DNA of 64,000 nt from an uncultured Planctomycetales bacterium (GTDB taxonomy: Bacteria; Planctomycetota; PLA2; JAEUHO01), in assembly GCA_964586025.1 (NCBI GenBank), contig CAZPGF010000003.1, positions 10,032 to 74,031 of the forward strand, read 5' to 3'. The notes beneath the pieces are model-generated. The model searched no databases. It was not told the DNA's origin and was given only the letters and a program-made list of their open reading frames with translations. A program made the translations under genes and the position numbers. How positions within the stretch are numbered: position 1 is the first letter of the stretch; every line of letters starts with the position of its first letter. Of the stretch, positions 7,108 through 60,209 are shown one piece after another.

Positions 7108-10100
7108 ATGGATTCGCCGACGCCTCGCGAACTCGCTCCCGACGCGGCGTTGCCGGCCGCGCCGCGGCTGCTGTTGACGGGAGCGGCGGGCACCGGAAAG
7201 ACGTGGCGCGCGCTCGGCGCGGTTCGCGACATCGCGACCCGCCGCGCCCCGCACGGTGGCGCCGCGGAGCGTCCGGGAGCCGCGCTGCTCGTGCTCCCGA
7301 CGTTCGCCGACGTGCAGCACGCGCGGCGGATCGCGCTCTCGCGGTGGGATGCGCGGGGTCTGCTCGACGAGGTGTTCGCCACGTTCACGGGAGCCGGGGA
7401 GCGTTTCCTCGATCGGTTCCGCGTGGACGTGCTTCCGTCGGCAGCCGCACGCGACCGCCTGCTCGTCGCAGCGCTCGCGGACGTCGATGCGCGCGTCTTC
7501 GCCGCGGTCGCCGGCGCCGCGGCGTTTCGAGCCCGCCTGCTGCGACTGATCAAGGAACTGAAGCAGAGCGGCGATGAACCGGCGGAGATCGCCGATCGAC
7601 TCGAGAACGCGGCGGACGCGTTGTCGGTGCCCGCTCGCGAGCGTCTCACGGCGTTCGTCGCCGTGTTTCGTGCCGTCCACCGCCGCCTCGCCGACACGGG
7701 TCTTTCCGATCACGAGGACGTGCTGCGCGCGCTCGCCCGGCGGCTGGAGGACCGCCCGCCTCGCTCGCCCCCGCGTCGTCTCGTCTTCGACGGCTTCGAG
7801 GACTTCACGCCCATCGAAGAGCGGATCCTCGATCGCCTCTCGTCGAGCGTCGTGGACGCCGGCGGGCAGGTGATCGTCACCTGTCCGTTCGACCCGCGAC
7901 GCGCCGCCCTGTTCGTGGCGACGGGCCCGTGGCGTGAGCGACGTCTCGCCGCGGGCTTCGAGGAGTGGCGCGTGATTCCGCGGGCCGATGCGCGTCCCGC
8001 TCCACTCGCGCGTCTCGCGCGCGAGCTGTTCAGCGAGGATCCGGGTGAGGCGCCGACGCCGGGAGGCTCCCGCGTGGCGTGGATCCTCGGCGGTGACGAC
8101 GAAGACGAGGCCGAGGCGATCGCGCGTCACGTCCGTCGCGCGGTGCTCGGCGCGGAGATCCGGGTCGGGGACCGTCCCGCTCGATGGCACGACGTCGCGA
8201 TCGTCGTGCCGGACCTCGGGAGGGACGCGAGTCGTCTGGCTTCGGCCCTCCGCCGGATCGGTGTGCCGGTCCGCGCCGAGGCGGTCGCACCATCGCTCGG
8301 ACGCACCCCCCTCGTTCGCGCGCTCCGCGGCGCGCTCGATGTCGTCGCGGGCGACATCGGGCCCGGCGAGTTCGATCCGTTCGCCCTGCATGCGTGGCTC
8401 GCCTGGTGCGTCGCGGCGGAAGGCGACGTCGAGGCGCGCCGTGCGCTCGATGCCTTCGAGGTGTGCCATCGGACCGACGGCGCTCCTCGGGACTTCCGCG
8501 CGTTCCTCGCCGACGCGCCGGACGCGATCGCACCGTTCGTCGTTCGCCTGGAGTCGGCGAGGGTGGCCCTCCACGACGCGCGCGGCGTGGAGGCGTTCGA
8601 AGGCCTCGCCGAGGCCATGCCGGACCTCGCGCCCCTGCCCGCGCCGAGCGCGCGCGACGACGCGGGGCGCCCGAGCGACGCCCGCCGGGACGCGCTGGTC
8701 GCCGCCGCGCATGCGGCGTCGGCGCGACTCGTGCGCGTGCTTTCCGGTCTCGCCGACGCGACGCATCGCACGGGCGTCGGTCCCGCATCGATCGCCGAGG
8801 CGGTGGCGGACCTGCTCGCGCATGCCGACGCGCTCTCGTTCGAAGCGCCCGATCGTCGTTTGGACGCGGTGTCCGTGATCGACATGGAGACGGCGCGCTT
8901 TCGAGAACCCGCGCTCGTCGTCGTAGCCGGGCTCGAAGCGGGGCGCGTGCCCCGGGGATCGGGCGAGGACCCGCTGCTCGCCGACGCCGATCGCGAGGCG
9001 CTGGTCGAACGGGATCCGCGACTGCGACTTCCGCGCGCCCGCGATCGCGACGCGCGCGAGCGCCGCCTCCTCTACTCGGCGATGACGTCCGCGCGCCACA
9101 CCCTCTGGCTCGCGCGGCCGACGATGGACGCCCGTGGCGACCAGGTCCTCTCGGCCCTGCCGATGCGCGCTCTCGAGCGCTGCGTCACGCCGACCATCCT
9201 CCACGACACGCGCGCCCCCGGCTCGCTCGCTCCGTCGCGCGATCTCGTCGCCAGCGAGCGCGATCTCGTCCACATCGCCGCCCATCCGTCGACGCCGCGG
9301 CCGCTCGCCGAGGCGCTCGCCCGGGCGCTCCCGACCACGGCGACGGCGCTCGAACGAGGTCGCGCGAGGCGGCCGACGAGGCTCCACGTCCCCCCGCCGG
9401 TCGCCGCGCGCCTCGCGTCGGGGTTCGACGTGATGAGCCCCAGCGAACTGGACGTGGCGCATCGATGTCGTGCGCAGTTCGCCTTCCGGCACGTGCTGCG
9501 CGTGCCGGAGGACGACCTGTCGTTCGAGCCGCGCGAGGTCGAGCCCGCCGAGGAGGGGCAACTGCTCCACGCGGCGTTTCGCACGGCCCTCCTGCGCGGC
9601 GATCGCACGGCCCTCGAGATCGCTCGCGACGTGCTGGCCGAGGCCGGCATCGAATCATCCGACGAGTCGTTGCTCGAGGCCGAATTGGTGCGTGCGATCG
9701 AGCTGTTGAGGCGGCGCGAGGCGGCGCTCCCGGCCGCCTGGCGCGCCGACCCGGCGTTTCTCGAACGATCGTTCGGTGCGGCCGACGAGATCGCCCTCGA
9801 CGACGGAGCGACCCGCCTCCTCTTGAAGGGGCGCATCGATCGCGTCGACGTCCGATCGGAGCGCGGAACGCCCCCGGTCGCCATCGTCGTCGACTACAAG
9901 CGCTCTCCCACCACCGTGGAGTCGTCGGCCAGCAGCGAGCGCAACGGTCTCGGCCTGCAACTCCGCCTCTATGCGCTCGCGGTCGAGCGGCTCGCACGGG
10001 TCCGCGTCGTCGGTCTCGAATGGGTCGCGTCGTTGGCCCGGTTGCGGCGCGGTGTCTACGACCAGCAGGCCCCACCCGATGTCGCATGGCGGCGCGAGGA

Positions 10101-13823: not shown

Positions 13824-14636
13824 ATGGCGCGAATCCGTACGTGGTCGGGTTGGGGCGTACTCGTCACCGGAGCGAGTTCCGGGATCGGGGCCGCGATCGC
13901 GCGACGGCTCGCGAGGGAGGGCGCGCGGCTGGTGCTCACGGCGCGCCGCGAGGACCGCCTCGCGGCGCTCGCAACGGAACTCAAGGAGCGCGGCGCGTCG
14001 GAGGTCCACCTCGTTCCCGAAGACCTCGGGGCGGAGGGAGGCGCGCGGCGCGTGGCCGAGACCGCGACGGAGCGGCTCCGGGGCGTCGAGTTCCTCGTGA
14101 ACAATGCCGGCTTTGCCGTGCCGGGACCTCTCGTCGCGGCGTCGTGGGAGCGTCTCGACGCGATGCTGCGGGTCAACGTCGAGGCGGCACTCGAACTCCA
14201 GCGCCGACTGCTTCCGCCGATGCTCGCGGCGCGCCGTGGCGCGATCCTCAACGTGGCGAGTCTCGCGGGCTTCCAGGCGTCGCCGTTCCAGGCGGTTTAC
14301 GGCGCGTCGAAGGCCTTCCTCCTGAACCTCTCCTGCGGAATCCATCAGGAGATGAGGGGACGCGGCGTCCATGTGACGGCCCTCTGTCCCGGCGTCACCG
14401 ACACGGAGTTCTTCGAAGCCGCGGGCTATCCGGAGCGAACCGGGTTCATGCGTCGGGCGATGGACGCCGATCGCGTGGCGCGCGCCGGTCTGCGAGCCGT
14501 CGCCAGGGGACGGATGCAGGTGGTTCCCGGCGCCATGAATCGAGCGGTGGTGCAGGTGCAGCGGTTCCTGCCGCGGACCTGGGTCGCCGCCGCGGCCCGC
14601 CGTGTCCTCGGCGCGCGCCCCCGACCGACCCGTTGA
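13824..14636 (+). CDS. SDR-family short-chain dehydrogenase/reductase
   Basis: TGASSGIGAAIARRLAREGARLVL, NNAG, YGASKAF catalytic YxxxK. Confidence 0.88.
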   Translation: MARIRTWSGWGVLVTGASSGIGAAIARRLAREGARLVLTARREDRLAALATELKERGASEVHLVPEDLGAEGGARRVAETATERLRGVEFLVNNAGFAVPGPLVAASWERLDAMLRVNVEAALELQRRLLPPMLAARRGAILNVASLAGFQASPFQAVYGASKAFLLNLSCGIHQEMRGRGVHVTALCPGVTDTEFFEAAGYPERTGFMRRAMDADRVARAGLRAVARGRMQVVPGAMNRAVVQVQRFLPRTWVAAAARRVLGARPRPTR

Positions 14637-14730
14637 CCGGCGCGAGTCGGATTCGGCCCGCGTCCACCGCCGCGGCGCCGGATCGGACGGGCCGCAGGAA
14701 GGGTCAGGCGTGCTACCTTCACCCGGCGTT

Positions 14731-14753
14731 CGGACGGGTCGGGAGCCCGTCCG
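14731..14753 (+). terminator. GC-rich stem-loop between the SDR gene and repeat-protein gene A (possible intrinsic terminator or attenuator)
   Basis: cggacggg tcgggag cccgtccg gives an 8-bp perfect stem with a 7-nt loop; no U-tract follows, as is common in high-GC genomes. Confidence 0.35.
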
Positions 14754-14791
14754 ACGGGCCTCTCGCCGGGAGCGGGGGCGCGGAGGGAACC

Positions 14792-16102
14792 GTGACGATC
14801 AGGCGTCTTGCGTTCGACGTGGTGTTCTGCGCGGCCCTCGGCCTCGCCGCGGCGATCCCGGGCGGATTCGGCGCGAGCGCCGCGTTCGCGGGCGACGACC
14901 TGCCGCCGGCGACGGCCGCGGTGATCGAGGCGAACGCCGGCAGCGACCCGGCCTGCGACGAGTGTCGCATCGAGACCCGCTGCGAGCCGATCTACGAGAC
15001 GGTCAAGGTGCCGATCTACGGCACGCGATCCGTGGCATGTACCCGCGAGGTCGAGGTGCCGGTCTACGCGACGATCGAAGTGCCCCGCTACGAGGAGCGC
15101 CGTGTCCCGGTGTTCGAGCGTCGCGAGGTGCCCCTCGTCGGCAAGCGCACGTACCCGGTCTACGAGGAGCGCCGAACGCCGATCGTCCACGTGGCACAGG
15201 CGCCGTGTCTGGAGTGCCGCGAGGTCCCGACCTTCGAGACGCGCTGGGTGCGCGACACGCAGCGGGAACTCGTGCCGGTCTACGAGAAGCGCAAGGTGCC
15301 CGCCTACGGGCTGCGCGATGTCCCCGACGAGCAGGTCGTCCTCCGCTCCACGTGGGGGACGATCGACGTGCCCGTCCGTCGGCGCGAACTCGAGCCCGTG
15401 ACCGAGTGCGTCGAGGTGCCCGTGACCGTTCACCGCGTGACGACGGACGTCCACGTCGGCTGCGACGAGTGCGGCTGTCCGACCTGCGAGGCGCAGCCGC
15501 CGAAGGCGGGTTCGGTCACGGTCGGGACGCGCACCGAGAAGCGCGTCGTCGACGTGCGGGCGGTCCCCGGGGAGATCTGCGGCACGCGGAAGGTGCCCGT
15601 GCGGACCGGCGAGGAGCGCACGACCGAGGTCGTCGGGACGAAGAAGGAGTGGGGCACGATCGGCTGCCGCGAGGAGACCGTCGTCTCGTGCTACCGGATC
15701 GAGGAGAGCCCCGGTGATTACCGTCCGGAGCGCGTCCGGACCGGAACCCGCTGCGAACTCCACGTGAAGGGCACCCAACTCGGCGCGCCGCGCGTCGTCG
15801 GCCACACCACGCACAAGGAGGCCGTGGGCACCGCGTGCGAGCCGGTGCCGTCCGGGTCGACGGTGAAGAGCGTGTTCGTCGGTTGGCGCGTCGAGAAGGT
15901 CTACGCGGGCTCCGAGATGCGCGAGGTGCAGATCGGCACCCGCCGGGTCACCGTCTGCGACGGTCACCGCGAGGAGCGCGTCCAGATCGGCGAGAAGGAG
16001 GAGGTCCGCTTCGTCGGCACGCGCAAGATCGAGGACCATGTCGGGCCCGCCCCGAAGCCCGCCTGCGGGTGCAAGGACGGTCCCGCGCGCGCGTCGAAGT
16101 GA
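14792..16102 (+). CDS. Secreted repeat protein A (VPVYE / VGTR-type short repeats, Cys pairs); function unknown
   Basis: GTG 14792 preceded by GGAGGGA. Signal peptide FDVVFCAALGLAAAIPGGFGASAAFA. N-half has repeats such as EVPVYATIEVPRYEERRVPVFERREVPLVGKRTYPVYEERRTP; C-half has VGTRTEKRVV / CGTRKVP / IGTRRVTV repeats; Cys-rich motifs CDECRIETRCEP, CDECGCPTCE, CGCKDG. Paralogous to the next gene. Confidence 0.65.
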   Translation: MTIRRLAFDVVFCAALGLAAAIPGGFGASAAFAGDDLPPATAAVIEANAGSDPACDECRIETRCEPIYETVKVPIYGTRSVACTREVEVPVYATIEVPRYEERRVPVFERREVPLVGKRTYPVYEERRTPIVHVAQAPCLECREVPTFETRWVRDTQRELVPVYEKRKVPAYGLRDVPDEQVVLRSTWGTIDVPVRRRELEPVTECVEVPVTVHRVTTDVHVGCDECGCPTCEAQPPKAGSVTVGTRTEKRVVDVRAVPGEICGTRKVPVRTGEERTTEVVGTKKEWGTIGCREETVVSCYRIEESPGDYRPERVRTGTRCELHVKGTQLGAPRVVGHTTHKEAVGTACEPVPSGSTVKSVFVGWRVEKVYAGSEMREVQIGTRRVTVCDGHREERVQIGEKEEVRFVGTRKIEDHVGPAPKPACGCKDGPARASK

Positions 16103-16130
16103 CCCGTCGCCGGGTTCGAGGAGGTCGCCC

Positions 16131-17228
16131 ATGCGTCGTCTGACGTCCGTTGCCCTCGGCGCCCTCGTCGCGTGGGGCGCCGCGGCCCACGGCGACGAGC
16201 CGGGTGCTCGCAGCGCTGCGCCCTACGTCGCCTCGTTGCCGCCGGTCTGCGGATGCACGACCCGCCGCGAGCACGTCCCCGCCGAGAAGGTCGGGCGGTT
16301 CGAGGTGCGTCACTTCACGCGGATCAATCCGACCTACGTCACCCGCCGACGCCCCCAGCTGCGCACCGAGTCGGTGCCGGTCTGGGGGACCAAGGACGTG
16401 CCGGTCTTCGAGGTGCGTCGCACGCCCCGCTACGAGGACGTCGAGATCACCGTGTACGGCTGGCGGGAGGTTCCCAACGTCATCGAGCGCAAGCGCGAGG
16501 TCTGGGAAACGGTCGAACGTCCGCGCCTGGTGACTCGGGAGGTCCCCGCCGAGCGGCTCGTGATCGATCCGGTCTATGCGAACGGCGAAGAACCGATCGA
16601 GCGCACCGTGCGCACGCCACGGGTCGAGTGCCAGACGGATCCGACGACCGGGCGCACCTGCCGCGTCGTCACCGGTCACGACGAGAAGGTCGTCAACGAG
16701 GGCACGCGTCGGTTCACGACGCTCACCGGGTATCGCTCGGAGGTCCGGCCGCACGGGATCCGGCTCGAATGGGCCGAAGAGGGCGTGCGCACCGAGCAGG
16801 TGTTCAAGGGCGTCGAGGTCGAGCGCATCGTGCAGGGAACGCGCCGCGAGCGTGTCGCGATCGGTTCACGCACCGAGCGGCGCCACGTCGGGTTCGACGA
16901 GGTGCGGATCCCCTGCGGCACGCGCCGGGAACGGGTCAAGGTGGGAACCCGCGACGTGACGCGCTGCGTGGGATGGCTCGAGGACCGCGAGCGGGTGGGA
17001 TTCGAGGAAGAGGAGGTCCCGTACACCTGGGAGTGCGTCGAGGAGTCCTGCGGTCCGTCCGGCACGCGCCCGGTCCGCGAACCGATCGCGCTTCCCGGTG
17101 TGTCCGTGACGGTCGTTCCCGACGGTTCGATCGGGCACGTGCTGCTGCCTGGGACGACGACGATGATGGGCGAGCGCGAGTTCGCGGCCGAACGCGCGCG
17201 TCGCGCCGCTCTCACGGCGCCGCGCTGA
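16131..17228 (+). CDS. Secreted repeat protein B (paralog of 14792-16102)
   Basis: ATG 16131 preceded by GAGGAGG. Signal peptide MRRLTSVALGALVAWGAAAHG. Same VPVFE / VGTR repeat architecture and a CGCTTRREHVP Cys motif. Confidence 0.65.
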   Translation: MRRLTSVALGALVAWGAAAHGDEPGARSAAPYVASLPPVCGCTTRREHVPAEKVGRFEVRHFTRINPTYVTRRRPQLRTESVPVWGTKDVPVFEVRRTPRYEDVEITVYGWREVPNVIERKREVWETVERPRLVTREVPAERLVIDPVYANGEEPIERTVRTPRVECQTDPTTGRTCRVVTGHDEKVVNEGTRRFTTLTGYRSEVRPHGIRLEWAEEGVRTEQVFKGVEVERIVQGTRRERVAIGSRTERRHVGFDEVRIPCGTRRERVKVGTRDVTRCVGWLEDRERVGFEEEEVPYTWECVEESCGPSGTRPVREPIALPGVSVTVVPDGSIGHVLLPGTTTMMGEREFAAERARRAALTAPR

Positions 17229-18015
17229 CCTTCGGGTCGAACGCGACCGCGATCGGACAGTGGTCCGACCCGACGACGTTCGGTTGGTGCCACGCGCCGA
17301 CGAGGTGATTGGCCGCCGCCGCCGTCGCGAGCGCGAGGTCGATGCGCCAGCCGATGTTCTTCTCGCGAACGCCGAATCGCTGGGACCACCACGTGTAGTG
17401 TCCGCCCCCCGACTCGAAGCGGCGGAAGGCGTCCACCCATCCGTTCCGGAACCAGACGTCGAGCGCCTCGCGCTCGACCGGGGTGAACCCGCTCGTGCCT
17501 ACATTCGCCTTCGGCCGCGCGAGATCGATCTCGCGATGCGCCGTGTTGAAGTCGCCGGTGACGACGACGCGCCCTCCGTCGCGCGCGATCCGATCGCCGA
17601 GATCGCGGACCGCCGCCGTGAACTCCAACTTGTACGGGATGCGCGACAGGTCGCGATCCTTCCCGTTGCCGTTCGGGAAGTAGGCCGAGAACACGGAGAA
17701 GCGTCCGAACCGCGCACCGACGAGGCGTCCTTCGACATCGAACCGCTCGTCGCCAAGCCCGTCGATCCACGCGTCCGGAGGGCGGCGTGAGAGCAGGGCG
17801 ACGCCGCTGTAGCCGGCGCGCGCCGCGGGGCGCACCCGCACCTGCCAGCCGTCGAGCGCGTCGCCGAGGGCCGCACGCATCTGCTCCTCGGTCGCGCGAA
17901 CCTCCTGCAGCGCCACGACGTCCGCTTCGGACTCGCGCAACCAGGCGAGGAGTCCCTTCGCCGCGGCCGAGCGGATCCCGTTGACGTTCCATGAAGCGAC
18001 GCGCATCGCGGCCAT
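17212..18015 (-). CDS. xth: Exodeoxyribonuclease III
   Basis: MAAMRVASWNVNGIRSAAAKGLLAWL...VALQE...GDFNTAHREIDL...SDHCPIAVAF. Start set by frame arithmetic within track ORF 17212..19965; the rest of that ORF is antisense to proS. Confidence 0.9.
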   Translation of the reverse strand: MAAMRVASWNVNGIRSAAAKGLLAWLRESEADVVALQEVRATEEQMRAALGDALDGWQVRVRPAARAGYSGVALLSRRPPDAWIDGLGDERFDVEGRLVGARFGRFSVFSAYFPNGNGKDRDLSRIPYKLEFTAAVRDLGDRIARDGGRVVVTGDFNTAHREIDLARPKANVGTSGFTPVEREALDVWFRNGWVDAFRRFESGGGHYTWWSQRFGVREKNIGWRIDLALATAAAANHLVGAWHQPNVVGSDHCPIAVAFDPKVSAAP

Positions 18016-18054
18016 CGTGCCCCGAGACGGACCGGCCGGGTAGCATCCCGCGCC

Positions 18055-59369: not shown

Positions 59370-60209
59370 ATGAGCACCCTCGCCAAGATCCTCGTCGTCG
59401 TGAACCTCCTGCTCGGAGTCGGGGTTCTCGCGAGCGTCGGGAGCTTCCTCGGTCAGCAGGACACGTGGAAGCACAAGCACGACAGGGAGGTCGCGGAGCG
59501 CAAGTTGGAGCGCGAGAGCCTTCAACAGCAACTCGACCAGGAAAAGACCTTCGCCCGCACGCAGGAAACGAACCTGCGCACGGCGAACGCCGCGAAGGAC
59601 AAGGCCGAGAGCAACGCCCGGGCCCTCCAGGCGGAGAACGAGAACCTGAAGGCCGCGTACAACGCGCTCGCCGAGAACCACGGCATCATGGCGCGCACGG
59701 TCGATCGCGTGACGAACACGCTCAACGCGAACCGCGACCTGATCACCACGCAGGAAGAGACGCTGCGCCAGCAGCGCGAGCAGATCTCCTCGCTGCAGGA
59801 CAGCCGCAACCAGGGCTCGCAGATCCTCAGCGCGAAGGAGTTGGCGCTCGATCGGGCGCAGGCCCAGATCAAGGATCTCGAGCAGAAGATCGCCGACGCG
59901 AACGAGAAGATCCGCACCCAGGAGTTCTCGCTGCGCGTGTTCCGCGAGCGCTTCCCCGGCGTCGAGGTCGCGTCGCAGCCGCCGCACAGCGGCAAGGTCC
60001 TGAACGTCGCCGGCGCGAGCGCGATCGTGATCTCGCTCGGCGCCGAGGACGGCGTCAAGCCCGGCTTCCTCTACATGCTGTCGCGCGGCGGCACCTACCT
60101 CGGCGATCTCCAGATCGACGACGTCCAGGCCAAGCAGTCGTCCGGCTTCCTCGTGAACGGCGCGAAGAGCCCGATCCAGTCCGGCGACGACGTTCACAAC
60201 GCCCGCTAG
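59370..60209 (+). CDS. Membrane-anchored coiled-coil protein with C-terminal beta-rich domain
   Basis: N-terminal TM segment ILVVVNLLLGVGVLASVG, about 170 aa of heptad-like Q/E/K/L-rich sequence, C-terminal GKVLNVAGASAIVISLGAEDGVKPGFLYML. Lower GC than surroundings. Start set by frame arithmetic. Confidence 0.6.
   Translation: MSTLAKILVVVNLLLGVGVLASVGSFLGQQDTWKHKHDREVAERKLERESLQQQLDQEKTFARTQETNLRTANAAKDKAESNARALQAENENLKAAYNALAENHGIMARTVDRVTNTLNANRDLITTQEETLRQQREQISSLQDSRNQGSQILSAKELALDRAQAQIKDLEQKIADANEKIRTQEFSLRVFRERFPGVEVASQPPHSGKVLNVAGASAIVISLGAEDGVKPGFLYMLSRGGTYLGDLQIDDVQAKQSSGFLVNGAKSPIQSGDDVHNAR

Follow-up and report, generated by a model that had tools for sequence, protein, structure and literature searches.

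We report that two adjacent genes of an uncultured Planctomycetales bacterium encode repeat-built, predicted exported proteins whose sequences point to an unusual fibrous architecture. The genes lie in a 64,000-nucleotide stretch of contig CAZPGF010000003.1 (assembly GCA_964586025.1, forward-strand positions 10,032 to 74,031), referred to below as the window, and all coordinates without a locus name are window positions. Gene 1 (14792-16102, plus strand; 436 amino acids, GTG start) and gene 2 (16131-17228, plus strand; 365 amino acids, ATG start) each combine an N-terminal block of eight-residue repeats (octads) with a C-terminal block of nine-residue repeats (nonads). In the protein family to which they belong, covariation shows computationally that octad and nonad strands run antiparallel and are paired 8:9. 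We consider it moderately probable that both genes encode giant beta-hairpin structural proteins, in which the mature chain would form one two-stranded antiparallel hairpin running from an octad strand through a cysteine-bearing cap into a nonad strand of equal unit number. Gene 1 would represent a form without a C-terminal head domain and gene 2 a form with a conserved one. The architecture is fairly well supported, and the function is one that we infer.

Repeats of exactly eight and nine residues

The octads of the N-terminal half follow the pattern V-P-V-Y-E-T-R-x, and the nonads of the C-terminal half follow V-x-V-G-T-R-x-E-R. Within residues 60-216 of gene 1, all 16 prolines fall in one phase of eight (p about 8e-13). 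The same holds for 12/12 prolines in residues 60-175 of gene 2 (p 9e-10), and the 13 glycines in residues 178-295 of gene 2 all lie in one phase of nine, with no indel (p 3e-12). An earlier note on this DNA, made from the sequence alone, had described repeats of 10-12 residues; Pro/Gly phasing gives periods of exactly 8 and 9 instead, and the misjudged length had therefore hidden the fact that the two kinds of repeat pair with each other. A search for DNA-level tandem repeats found none relevant at the locus. As the repeats are invisible at the DNA level, they are old, with only the structural positions having been kept. The richness in R, E, V, T, P and G that the earlier note had reported was confirmed, with these six residues together accounting for 62% of the gene 1 protein and 67% of the gene 2 protein.

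In gene 1, the octad strand (14966-15442, plus strand; residues ~59-217) consists of 19 units of 8 with proline at positions 66+8n. It is followed by a turn region (15443-15514, plus strand; residues 218-241) holding the cysteine cluster C224/C227/C229/C232, and then by a nonad strand (15515-16051, plus strand; residues ~242-420) of 19-20 units of 9, supported by Gly phase statistics and containing two one-residue insertions. In gene 2, the N-terminal strand and octads (16224-16637, plus strand; residues 32-169) carry proline at 67+8n as far as residue 163, which gives 13 paired units. The hairpin turn D-P-T-T-G-R-T-C (16638-16661, plus strand; residues 170-177) is closed by C167 and C177, a pair that is conserved in the orthologue P0011 and would probably form a disulfide. 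The nonad strand of gene 2 (16662-17015, plus strand; residues 178-295) has glycine at 182+9n in 13 units with no indel. Beyond it lies the C-terminal head domain (17061-17225, plus strand; residues ~311-365), which reads VTVVPDG...LPGT... and continues into a helix.

A protein family from Planctomycetota

Searches of Pfam and NCBIfam with both proteins yielded no domain match even at E<=10, only noise (Viral_Beta_CD, E 0.3; Streccoc_I_II, E 5.2), and PHROGs yielded no match for gene 1 or gene 2. A profile search of PDB sequences gave a best E of 0.46, and literature searches by motif and by concept found no paper on these motifs in the library searched. Seven other family members likewise had no Pfam match at E<=0.1, and none of those tested has a PHROGs match. 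The absence of a recognisable domain, for which the earlier note had named YTV, PEGA, collagen and SLH as families that did not fit, is thus borne out, and a confident match to a known repeat family, which that note had listed as grounds for abandoning its view, was looked for in Pfam and NCBIfam and not found.

Relatives are rare in a search of 5.8 billion proteins, and those that carry a name are each a 'hypothetical protein' from metagenome-assembled genomes (MAGs) of Planctomycetota. The profile search of this word-indexed database recovered 29 clusters, and an exhaustive hidden Markov model (HMM) search of 1.84 billion representatives recovered 330 matches at E<=1e-3, including 138 at E<=1e-10 and 63 at E<=1e-30. 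The family profile (alignment A3) matches gene 2 (P0010) with an E of 1.3e-85 in the word-indexed search and gene 1 (P0001) with an E of 2.3e-37 in the exhaustive search. A typical member of ~265-275 amino acids has a signal peptide, an N-terminal strand (R-V-x-x-I-P-A-H), ~7-8 octads, a turn, ~7 nonads and a C-terminal module. Across the family, the octad consensus is V-P-V-Y-E-T-R-(E/R), and that of the nonad is V-Q-V-G-T-R-T-E-R. In the short form, the turn reads LWNPFxCED...ELWDxCE and the C-terminal module VTVVPDG...PLxGT..RVLTESEY..LA.

Both window proteins follow the family plan of a leader, Pro-phased octads, a Cys-bearing turn and an equal count of Gly-phased nonads. The family head motif (VTVVPDG...PLxGT...ESEY...LA) is present at residues 326-362 of gene 2. 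In this domain V326, T327, V328 and L339 are nearly invariant in 27 sequences, and outside the repeats the V-T-V positions rank among the best conserved in the family. Judged by its sequence, gene 2 is an enlarged member of this ~270-residue family. Gene 1 is assigned, by the same kind of comparison, to a divergent subfamily, because in it and its orthologues the head domain is missing and the C-terminus is a tail rich in cysteine. Gene 1 and gene 2 encode distantly related paralogues (BLASTP 25% identity, E 4e-13), which confirms that they form a tandem pair as first noted, and the window contains no further paralogues of them.

The profile also reached three very large proteins, which it matched through low-complexity octads only. 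P0074 (4166 amino acids) and P0076 (2072 amino acids) contain arrays of xPVYGNVx octads together with Laminin_G_3 and a C-terminal Peptidase_S74 chaperone. P0114 (1140 amino acids) contains an array of TVEVPRMQ octads, a polysaccharide pyruvyl transferase domain and a Gp5_trimer_C match. All three look like tail-fibre-like proteins or surface fibres.

Covariation between octad and nonad strands

For the covariation analysis, 45 full-length short members were aligned to the family HMM and mutual information with average product correction (APC-MI) was calculated with gaps ignored. The octad-by-nonad block shows a narrow antidiagonal band at i+j = 263-281 and no diagonal band. The 16-wide antidiagonal band has a mean of 0.0238, compared with 0.0012 +/- 0.0063 for other bands and a maximum of 0.0084 among 20 column shuffles. 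Moreover, the best local register, 267 close to the turn, rises by about +1 with every repeat and reaches 277 at the opposite end, which is the drift that pairing of 8-residue with 9-residue units would produce. When this was expressed as the register j = 140 + (127-i)*9/8 + c, the mean APC-MI was 0.081 at c=0 against a background of 0.0025 +/- 0.008 (z = 9.8), with 0.058 and 0.052 at c = -2 and +2, respectively. Signal at these two offsets reflects the same-face neighbours that are typical of a beta-ladder. Rival registers were weaker, with 0.040 for a slope of 1:1, 0.039-0.055 for other slopes, 0.019 for parallel pairing and 0.046 for local i,i+2 pairs, and covariation at separations of 8/9 or 16 was about 0.02. 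A second alignment, made with MAFFT, gave 0.080 (z = 9.5), and the peak stood above every background offset in 30/30 bootstraps.

In the 8:9 register, the proline at octad position 2 lies opposite the glycine at nonad position 4 in 7/7 unit pairs, V3 lies opposite V3, and R7 lies opposite E8. Pairs of R/K with E are among the strongest covarying pairs, and the conserved Pro and Gly columns make hardly any contribution to the score. The additional residue that a nonad has over an octad would be absorbed at the conserved glycine, probably in a Gly-dependent beta-bulge of the G1 type, facing a proline that is unable to donate a hydrogen bond.

Predicted pairing in the two window proteins

The unit counts of both window proteins match this register. 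In gene 2, Pro 163, 155 ... 67 face Gly 182, 191 ... 290, so that 13 octads stand against 13 nonads around D-P-T-T-G, and in comparison with the short forms octads and nonads have been gained in matched number at the turn end. In gene 1, octad positions 210 ... 66 (Pro in 16/19) face nonad positions 245 ... 409 (Gly in 16/19), a 19:19 arrangement around a 24-residue turn. The charge and hydrophobic complementarity between the k-th octad and the k-th nonad of gene 1 is 24.5, compared with 3.9 +/- 5.9 for random re-pairing (p=0.0004). Across 61 family proteins, which are phylogenetically non-independent, the span of the octad strand correlates with that of the nonad strand at r=0.85.

The numbers of unit pairs, 7 in the short forms, 13 in gene 2 and 19 in gene 1, are separated by steps of six, a spacing that is not obvious in P0013 and others and that may be either a coincidence or a structural super-period.

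The AlphaFold models of both proteins are all-beta in the repeat region. The gene 2 model, built from 27 sequences, has a mean predicted local distance difference test (pLDDT) score of 72.9, with 86-92 in the repeats. Its strands cover residues 32-56, 60-110, 124-147 and 155-169, followed by a break at 170-175 and strands at 176-192 and 201-280, and the DSSP break at 148-154 faces that at 193-200. The head domain (pLDDT 82-94) is modelled as strands plus a helix at 348-362, the only helix of the model. In gene 1, strands cover residues 59-114, 118-177, 180-196 and 199-217 on one side and 238-258, 262-280, 284-351 and 356-417 on the other. No strand is predicted at 218-237, and pLDDT is <50 over 210-243. 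The longest strands in the pair reach 51-80 residues.

The two strand spans of gene 1 measure 159 residues (59-217) and 180 residues (238-417), a ratio of 0.883 compared with 8/9 = 0.889, and its DSSP breaks are matched under 8:9 scaling at 116/352, 178/282 and 197/260. Because strand lengths and breaks match in this way, both models are best read as a single giant hairpin. An alternative reading of the gene 1 model as separate octad-octad and nonad-nonad hairpins was abandoned, as the breaks and lengths, the cysteine positions and the complementarity fit one 8:9 hairpin better. The Foldseek comparison that the earlier note had proposed was carried out and gave no significant fold match, either against the PDB (best E 0.16, template modelling (TM) score <0.1) or against BFVD (best E 4.6e-3, TM 0.07), and no fold match was found for the gene 2 head domain.

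Predicted export, cysteines and proposed role

Both proteins begin with a putative signal peptide. That of gene 1 (14792-14890, plus strand; residues 1-33) consists of MTIRR, a hydrophobic stretch and A-F-A, with predicted cleavage between AFA and GDD. That of gene 2 (16131-16193, plus strand; residues ~1-21) consists of MRR and a hydrophobic stretch, with predicted cleavage between AAAHG and DE, and aligns with the family leaders. Leaders are aligned in 26/27 family members, the remaining one being N-terminally truncated, and the leaders of the gene 1 orthologues also align. The signal peptides that the earlier note had seen are in keeping with inspection and with alignment across the family. 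Lipoprotein and Tat export were considered and dropped, as the homologues lack a lipobox and a conserved twin-arginine motif.

Gene 1 contains 20 cysteines and gene 2 contains eight. Those of gene 1 include the motifs C55-x2-C58, C139-x2-C142 and C224-x2-C227-x-C229-x2-C232, and C55, C58, C139, C142 and C232 are invariant across the four gene 1 orthologues. Its turn cluster holds 3-5 cysteines at positions that shift among orthologues. Family-wide, the turn pair co-occurs (columns 135/146, phi 0.60) and the other cysteines are variable, with 3-15 per protein. Co-occurrence of cysteines was dropped as a map of the topology, since only this turn pair was clear. The regular placement of cysteines that had been proposed earlier therefore stands only loosely: across the family, only a pair at the hairpin turn clearly co-occurs. 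When placed on the hairpin, C83/C389 and C142/C321 of gene 1 are nearly opposite each other. For six other gene 1 cysteines, and for C262 and C279 in gene 2, the opposite strand offers no partner. These unpartnered cysteines hint at intermolecular cross-links.

We propose that the pair belongs to a new Planctomycetota family of non-enzymatic fibrous proteins exported by the Sec pathway. Along the two-stranded ribbon, V/Y patches would alternate with R-E salt-bridge ladders. If the ribbon is extended, rods of roughly 50 nm (gene 1, 19 pairs), 35-45 nm (gene 2, 13 pairs) and 25 nm (short form, 7 pairs) would result. Cysteines would staple the turn and the open end, and those without a partner may cross-link molecules. 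At its open end, gene 2 would carry the conserved small alpha/beta head that gene 1 lacks, and the head domain and the Cys-rich ends could mediate attachment or polymerisation. The two proteins would be co-expressed and would serve as a structural element (a fibre, strut, spacer or matrix component) of the periplasm, the outer envelope or the cell surface. A Sec leader in a diderm bacterium would imply a periplasmic location, or export onward to the surface. Conservation is focused on geometric positions (Pro, Gly, V-x-V, R/E) and on the gene 2 head, and size varies by whole unit pairs. Together with the lack of a catalytic domain, this points to a structural rod in which length is what matters. 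The cell-surface or matrix role suggested in the earlier note fits long, all-beta fibrous rods with Cys-rich ends, and its suggestion of a spore coat has no basis in a planctomycete.

Several observations weigh against this explanation. The covariation comes from short members (effective number of sequences about 40) and its application to the longer window proteins relies on homology and on counts of units. Confidence in the gene 1 model is low (pLDDT 56.9, from 4 sequences), and strand pairing in both AlphaFold models was deduced from the DSSP break pattern alone. The complementarity of gene 2 is borderline, at 11.0 compared with 2.5 +/- 5.0 for random re-pairing (p=0.05), and several of the predicted cross-strand cysteine partners are 1-2 residues out of register. 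The signal peptides were judged by eye from a basic N-terminus, a hydrophobic core and an AxA-like site, and family members are not surrounded by informative conserved neighbours. Finally, a lone two-stranded ribbon of >100 residues is unlikely to be stable, and higher-order assembly is likely.

A bolder formulation, possible but doubtful in our view, is that the heteroperiodic beta-ribbon constitutes a new fibrous fold class. Here the two strands would zip together 8:9 through one Gly bulge opposite one Pro per unit, forming coiled or supercoiled two-stranded rods, the length of which would depend simply on how many unit pairs there are (7, 13 or 19; roughly 25-55 nm). The tandem paralogues would act as disulfide-linked envelope fibres or struts, and the same design would have arisen in, or spread to, membrane-anchored proteins of another lineage.

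Alternative explanations

Secreted, all-beta, repeat-built proteins in which hydrophobic VPVY blocks alternate with charged blocks could also form a functional-amyloid-like, cross-beta matrix, with short strands perpendicular to the fibril axis as in curli, Fap or lacewing egg-stalk silk, and contribute to a biofilm matrix. The Cys-rich ends, where several cysteines have no intramolecular partner, and the small covariation signal at separations 8 and 9 are in keeping with this idea. It is nevertheless unlikely, as the long-range octad-nonad signal of 0.081 is far above the value of about 0.02 at separations 8/9 or 16, and as ~30% D/E/K/R with a proline in each unit would be unusual for an amyloid core. 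In addition, neither protein has a Pfam match to a functional amyloid such as curli CsgA or Fap, and the four syntenic loci contain no csgB/E/F/G or fapA-F and no other curli- or Fap-like assembly genes near the pair. This alternative overlaps in part with the giant beta-hairpin explanation, since hairpins could stack laterally.

A trimeric or otherwise oligomeric intertwined beta-helix or beta-spiral fibre, in which octads contributed by three chains coil about one shared axis in the manner of phage fibres and the VxGxxxxx octads of T4 gp5, is similarly improbable. In its favour, the octad segment of the profile matches the arrays of P0074 and P0076, whose Peptidase_S74 chaperone is typical of trimeric fibres, the octads of P0114, otherwise unrelated to the pair, match Pfam Gp5_trimer_C at 35.9 bits (cut-off 30.9), and the weak best Foldseek matches are phage tail proteins. 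However, these giant proteins are matched only in low-complexity octads, gene 1 and gene 2 themselves have no Gp5_trimer_C or PHROG match, and pattern scans of IMG/VR found no relatives in viral contigs. A parallel homotrimeric helix also does not predict antiparallel 8:9 octad-nonad covariation and leaves the equal octad and nonad counts unexplained. Trimerisation of whole hairpins may be compatible with the data.

If the repeats were mere spacers, the CxxC and CxxCxCxxC motifs of gene 1, which include the five invariant cysteines, might bind Zn, Fe or Cu or perform thiol exchange. Metal binding was one of the roles considered in the earlier note, but a dedicated metal site is very unlikely, as orthologues differ in how many clustered cysteines they have and in where these lie: in the turn cluster, 3-5 cysteines occupy shifting positions, and members have 3-15 cysteines, often an odd number, with one co-occurring pair. 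The repeat Pro and Gly are conserved more strictly than any Cys, and no known metal-binding domain was detected. An oligomeric beta-barrel stem or conduit, in which many long hairpins side by side would build an envelope-spanning tube as in anthrax protective antigen or alpha-haemolysin, has in our judgement a very slight probability. Spurious or decaying ORFs, or disordered polyampholytes without a defined fold, might be suspected because long ORFs are common in high-GC genomes and the proteins have a biased composition with no known domain, but they are excluded by the sequence evidence, which includes a G+C content at third codon positions (GC3) of 0.93 and 0.87, conserved Shine-Dalgarno (SD) sites, orthologues in four lineages, ratios of nonsynonymous to synonymous substitution rates (dN/dS) of 0.13-0.23, hundreds of homologues, and an exact Pro/Gly phase over 13-19 units with strong covariation that requires a defined structure.

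Gene calls and genomic neighbourhood

The gene calls agree with the earlier note, which had placed two adjacent plus-strand genes here, each with its own SD site. That of gene 1 is GGAGGG (14782-14787, plus strand), kept as GGAGGGAA in loci L001 and L004, and that of gene 2 is GAGGAGG (16118-16124, plus strand), of which 6/7 positions (AGGAGG) are invariant in 4/4 lineages. The intergenic gap between the genes is 28 nucleotides. The window has a G+C content of ~72%, and the GC3 of both called frames is similar to that of the neighbouring housekeeping genes addA and proS, so the many overlapping ORFs on both strands are the usual high-GC artefacts.

The gene order is addB, addA, a short-chain dehydrogenase/reductase (SDR) gene, gene 1, gene 2, xth (minus strand) and proS. 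The pair therefore sits between the SDR gene and xth, and not between a DNA-repair block and the SDR gene as first described. The SDR gene (13824-14636, plus strand; adh_short, Pfam E 1e-48) is the conserved upstream neighbour of gene 1. The convergent neighbour xth (17212-18021, minus strand; Exo_endo_phos, Pfam E 1.8e-35) lies outside the feature, and its 3' end overlaps the last 17 nucleotides of gene 2 (17212-17228, stop-proximal). The same order, SDR-gene 1-gene 2-xth, recurs in three other lineages (L001/L014, L004/L015 and L010), which makes four with the window. Gene 1 orthologues in the three other lineages have 41-51% BLASTP identity, gene 2 orthologues have 66% and 57% identity, and a close gene 2 relative occurs in only two GTDB species representatives. 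Between the two closest lineages, gene 1 has a dN/dS of 0.23 and gene 2 one of 0.13, compared with 0.10 for the SDR gene. The lack of conservation in related genomes that the earlier note had named as counter-evidence was thus not observed, with orthologues present in four lineages at a dN/dS of 0.13-0.23.

The SDR gene is syntenic in the four lineages, yet it is absent beside short family members, and there is no evidence for a functional link to the pair. Short members stand in unrelated neighbourhoods, and the SDR/xth association is therefore synteny of close relatives and not the signal of a functional operon. Gene neighbourhood was consequently dropped as a functional clue. One sister lineage (L001, 1430-6785; also L002 and L003) has an insertion between addA and the SDR gene that the window does not share; it encodes a methyltransferase, a radical-SAM enzyme, a secretin of 374 amino acids and an unannotated ORF. 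At L008 (6892-7829), the short member P0008 divergently adjoins an extracytoplasmic function (ECF) sigma factor and a 90-amino-acid ORF that may be an anti-sigma factor; this sigma factor was rejected as a general partner, as it was not seen at other loci. At L013 (6017-6799), a short member adjoins an Exo_endo_phos gene; as its nuclease and that of xth share 34% identity over 93 residues and are not orthologues, the adjacency looks coincidental.

Upstream of gene 1, the element GGCGTGCTACCTTC (14707-14720, plus strand) is near-identical in the window and in the corresponding intergenic regions of L001 (7886-8000) and L004 (6453-6568). Its TACCTT is a candidate -10-like sequence, and the element is possibly part of a gene 1 promoter, judging by its conservation; a scan for sigma-70 consensus promoters and terminators found none. 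Between the SDR gene and gene 1 there is also a stem-loop (14730-14754, plus strand; tcggacggg / tcgggag / cccgtccga) with a perfect 9-bp stem that appears in the minimum free energy fold. It is conserved in L001 and L004 with one compensatory change (A-T to C-G) and one G-C to G-T change. The fold of the whole region is not significant (z-score -0.08). Motif and hairpin occur together in three lineages out of four, and L010 has neither. The stem-loop may act as a hairpin in the 5' untranslated region, or it may be a T-less terminator that serves the SDR gene. The earlier note had pointed out this stem-loop and had taken it as a sign that the pair has its own regulation; the stem-loop exists and is kept in two other lineages, and regulation is made plausible by the conserved motif and hairpin but is not demonstrated.

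An Rfam scan of the locus and of the whole 64 kb returned no family at gathering score. A sub-threshold msiK match in the 3' part of gene 2 (17104-17166; 18.9 bits, gathering score 33, E 0.45) is most likely due to chance. The sole tRNA of the window is a tRNA-Ser (GCT) at 59553-59642 on the minus strand.

Comparison with known systems

We know of no description of a two-stranded hairpin with >100 residues per strand, two repeat periods and a Pro-Gly bulge code. We therefore rate the protein family and its architecture as new, on evidence that is all computational and with a biological role that we infer. If the model holds, it would describe a fibrous architecture with no solved or described counterpart, containing the longest known two-stranded hairpins and governed by a simple 8:9 rule. 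It would offer length-programmable beta-rods with a regular bulge code for structural and design research, and a testable candidate for the envelope or surface fibres of Planctomycetota, the components of which are largely unknown. Should the proteins be only minor periplasmic components, their interest would be mainly structural. Several hundred 'hypothetical proteins' are also defined as a family that could become a new Pfam entry.

The T4 gp5 triple beta-helix (Gp5_trimer_C, VxGxxxxx) and S74 fibre shafts resemble the pair in their octad period, all-beta rod shape and structural role. They are parallel intertwined homotrimers, whereas covariation supports an intrachain antiparallel octad-nonad hairpin for the pair. 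Unlike phage fibre and spike proteins, neither window protein matches Gp5_trimer_C, S74 or a PHROG, pattern scans of IMG/VR found no relatives, and the two genes lie among housekeeping genes.

The G5-E rods of SasG and Aap in staphylococci and the single-layer sheet of OspA in Borrelia are elongated surface proteins whose flat beta-sheets lack a conventional hydrophobic core and owe their stability to long strands and ladders of charged side chains. They form rods that project from, or act as spacers at, the cell surface. SasG is built from domains of roughly 80 and 50 residues with three-stranded sheets and triple-helix-like segments, and in OspA globular domains flank a short sheet of three hairpins. 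The proposed rods are like them in shape, but strands of >100 residues in a single hairpin, or different repeat periods on its two strands, occur in neither system, and profile and Foldseek searches gave no sequence or fold match between them and the pair. The long beta-hairpin stems of pore-forming toxins such as anthrax protective antigen and Vip1 are also among the closest known systems.

YTV-domain proteins (PF07639) are Cys/Pro-rich putative cell-wall proteins of Planctomycetes. Like the pair, they come from the same phylum, are exported, repeat-built and rich in Cys, Pro, Thr and Val, and have a proposed structural role in the envelope. They differ in repeat units, periods and architecture, and the pair has no YTV match at E<=10.

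The proteins P0006, P0009 (L006/L007, 8001-9398) and P0089, from a non-planctomycete lineage, are uncharacterised, unannotated metagenomic proteins and carry a W-x-x-W-S-x-W-like motif. They differ from the pair in that the nonads come first and in having an N-terminal membrane anchor, an extra Cys-containing globular region and no family head. Like the pair, they contain both repeat types in matched lengths (~54-81 vs 48-72 residues), which suggests that the principle of pairing octads with nonads is used more widely.

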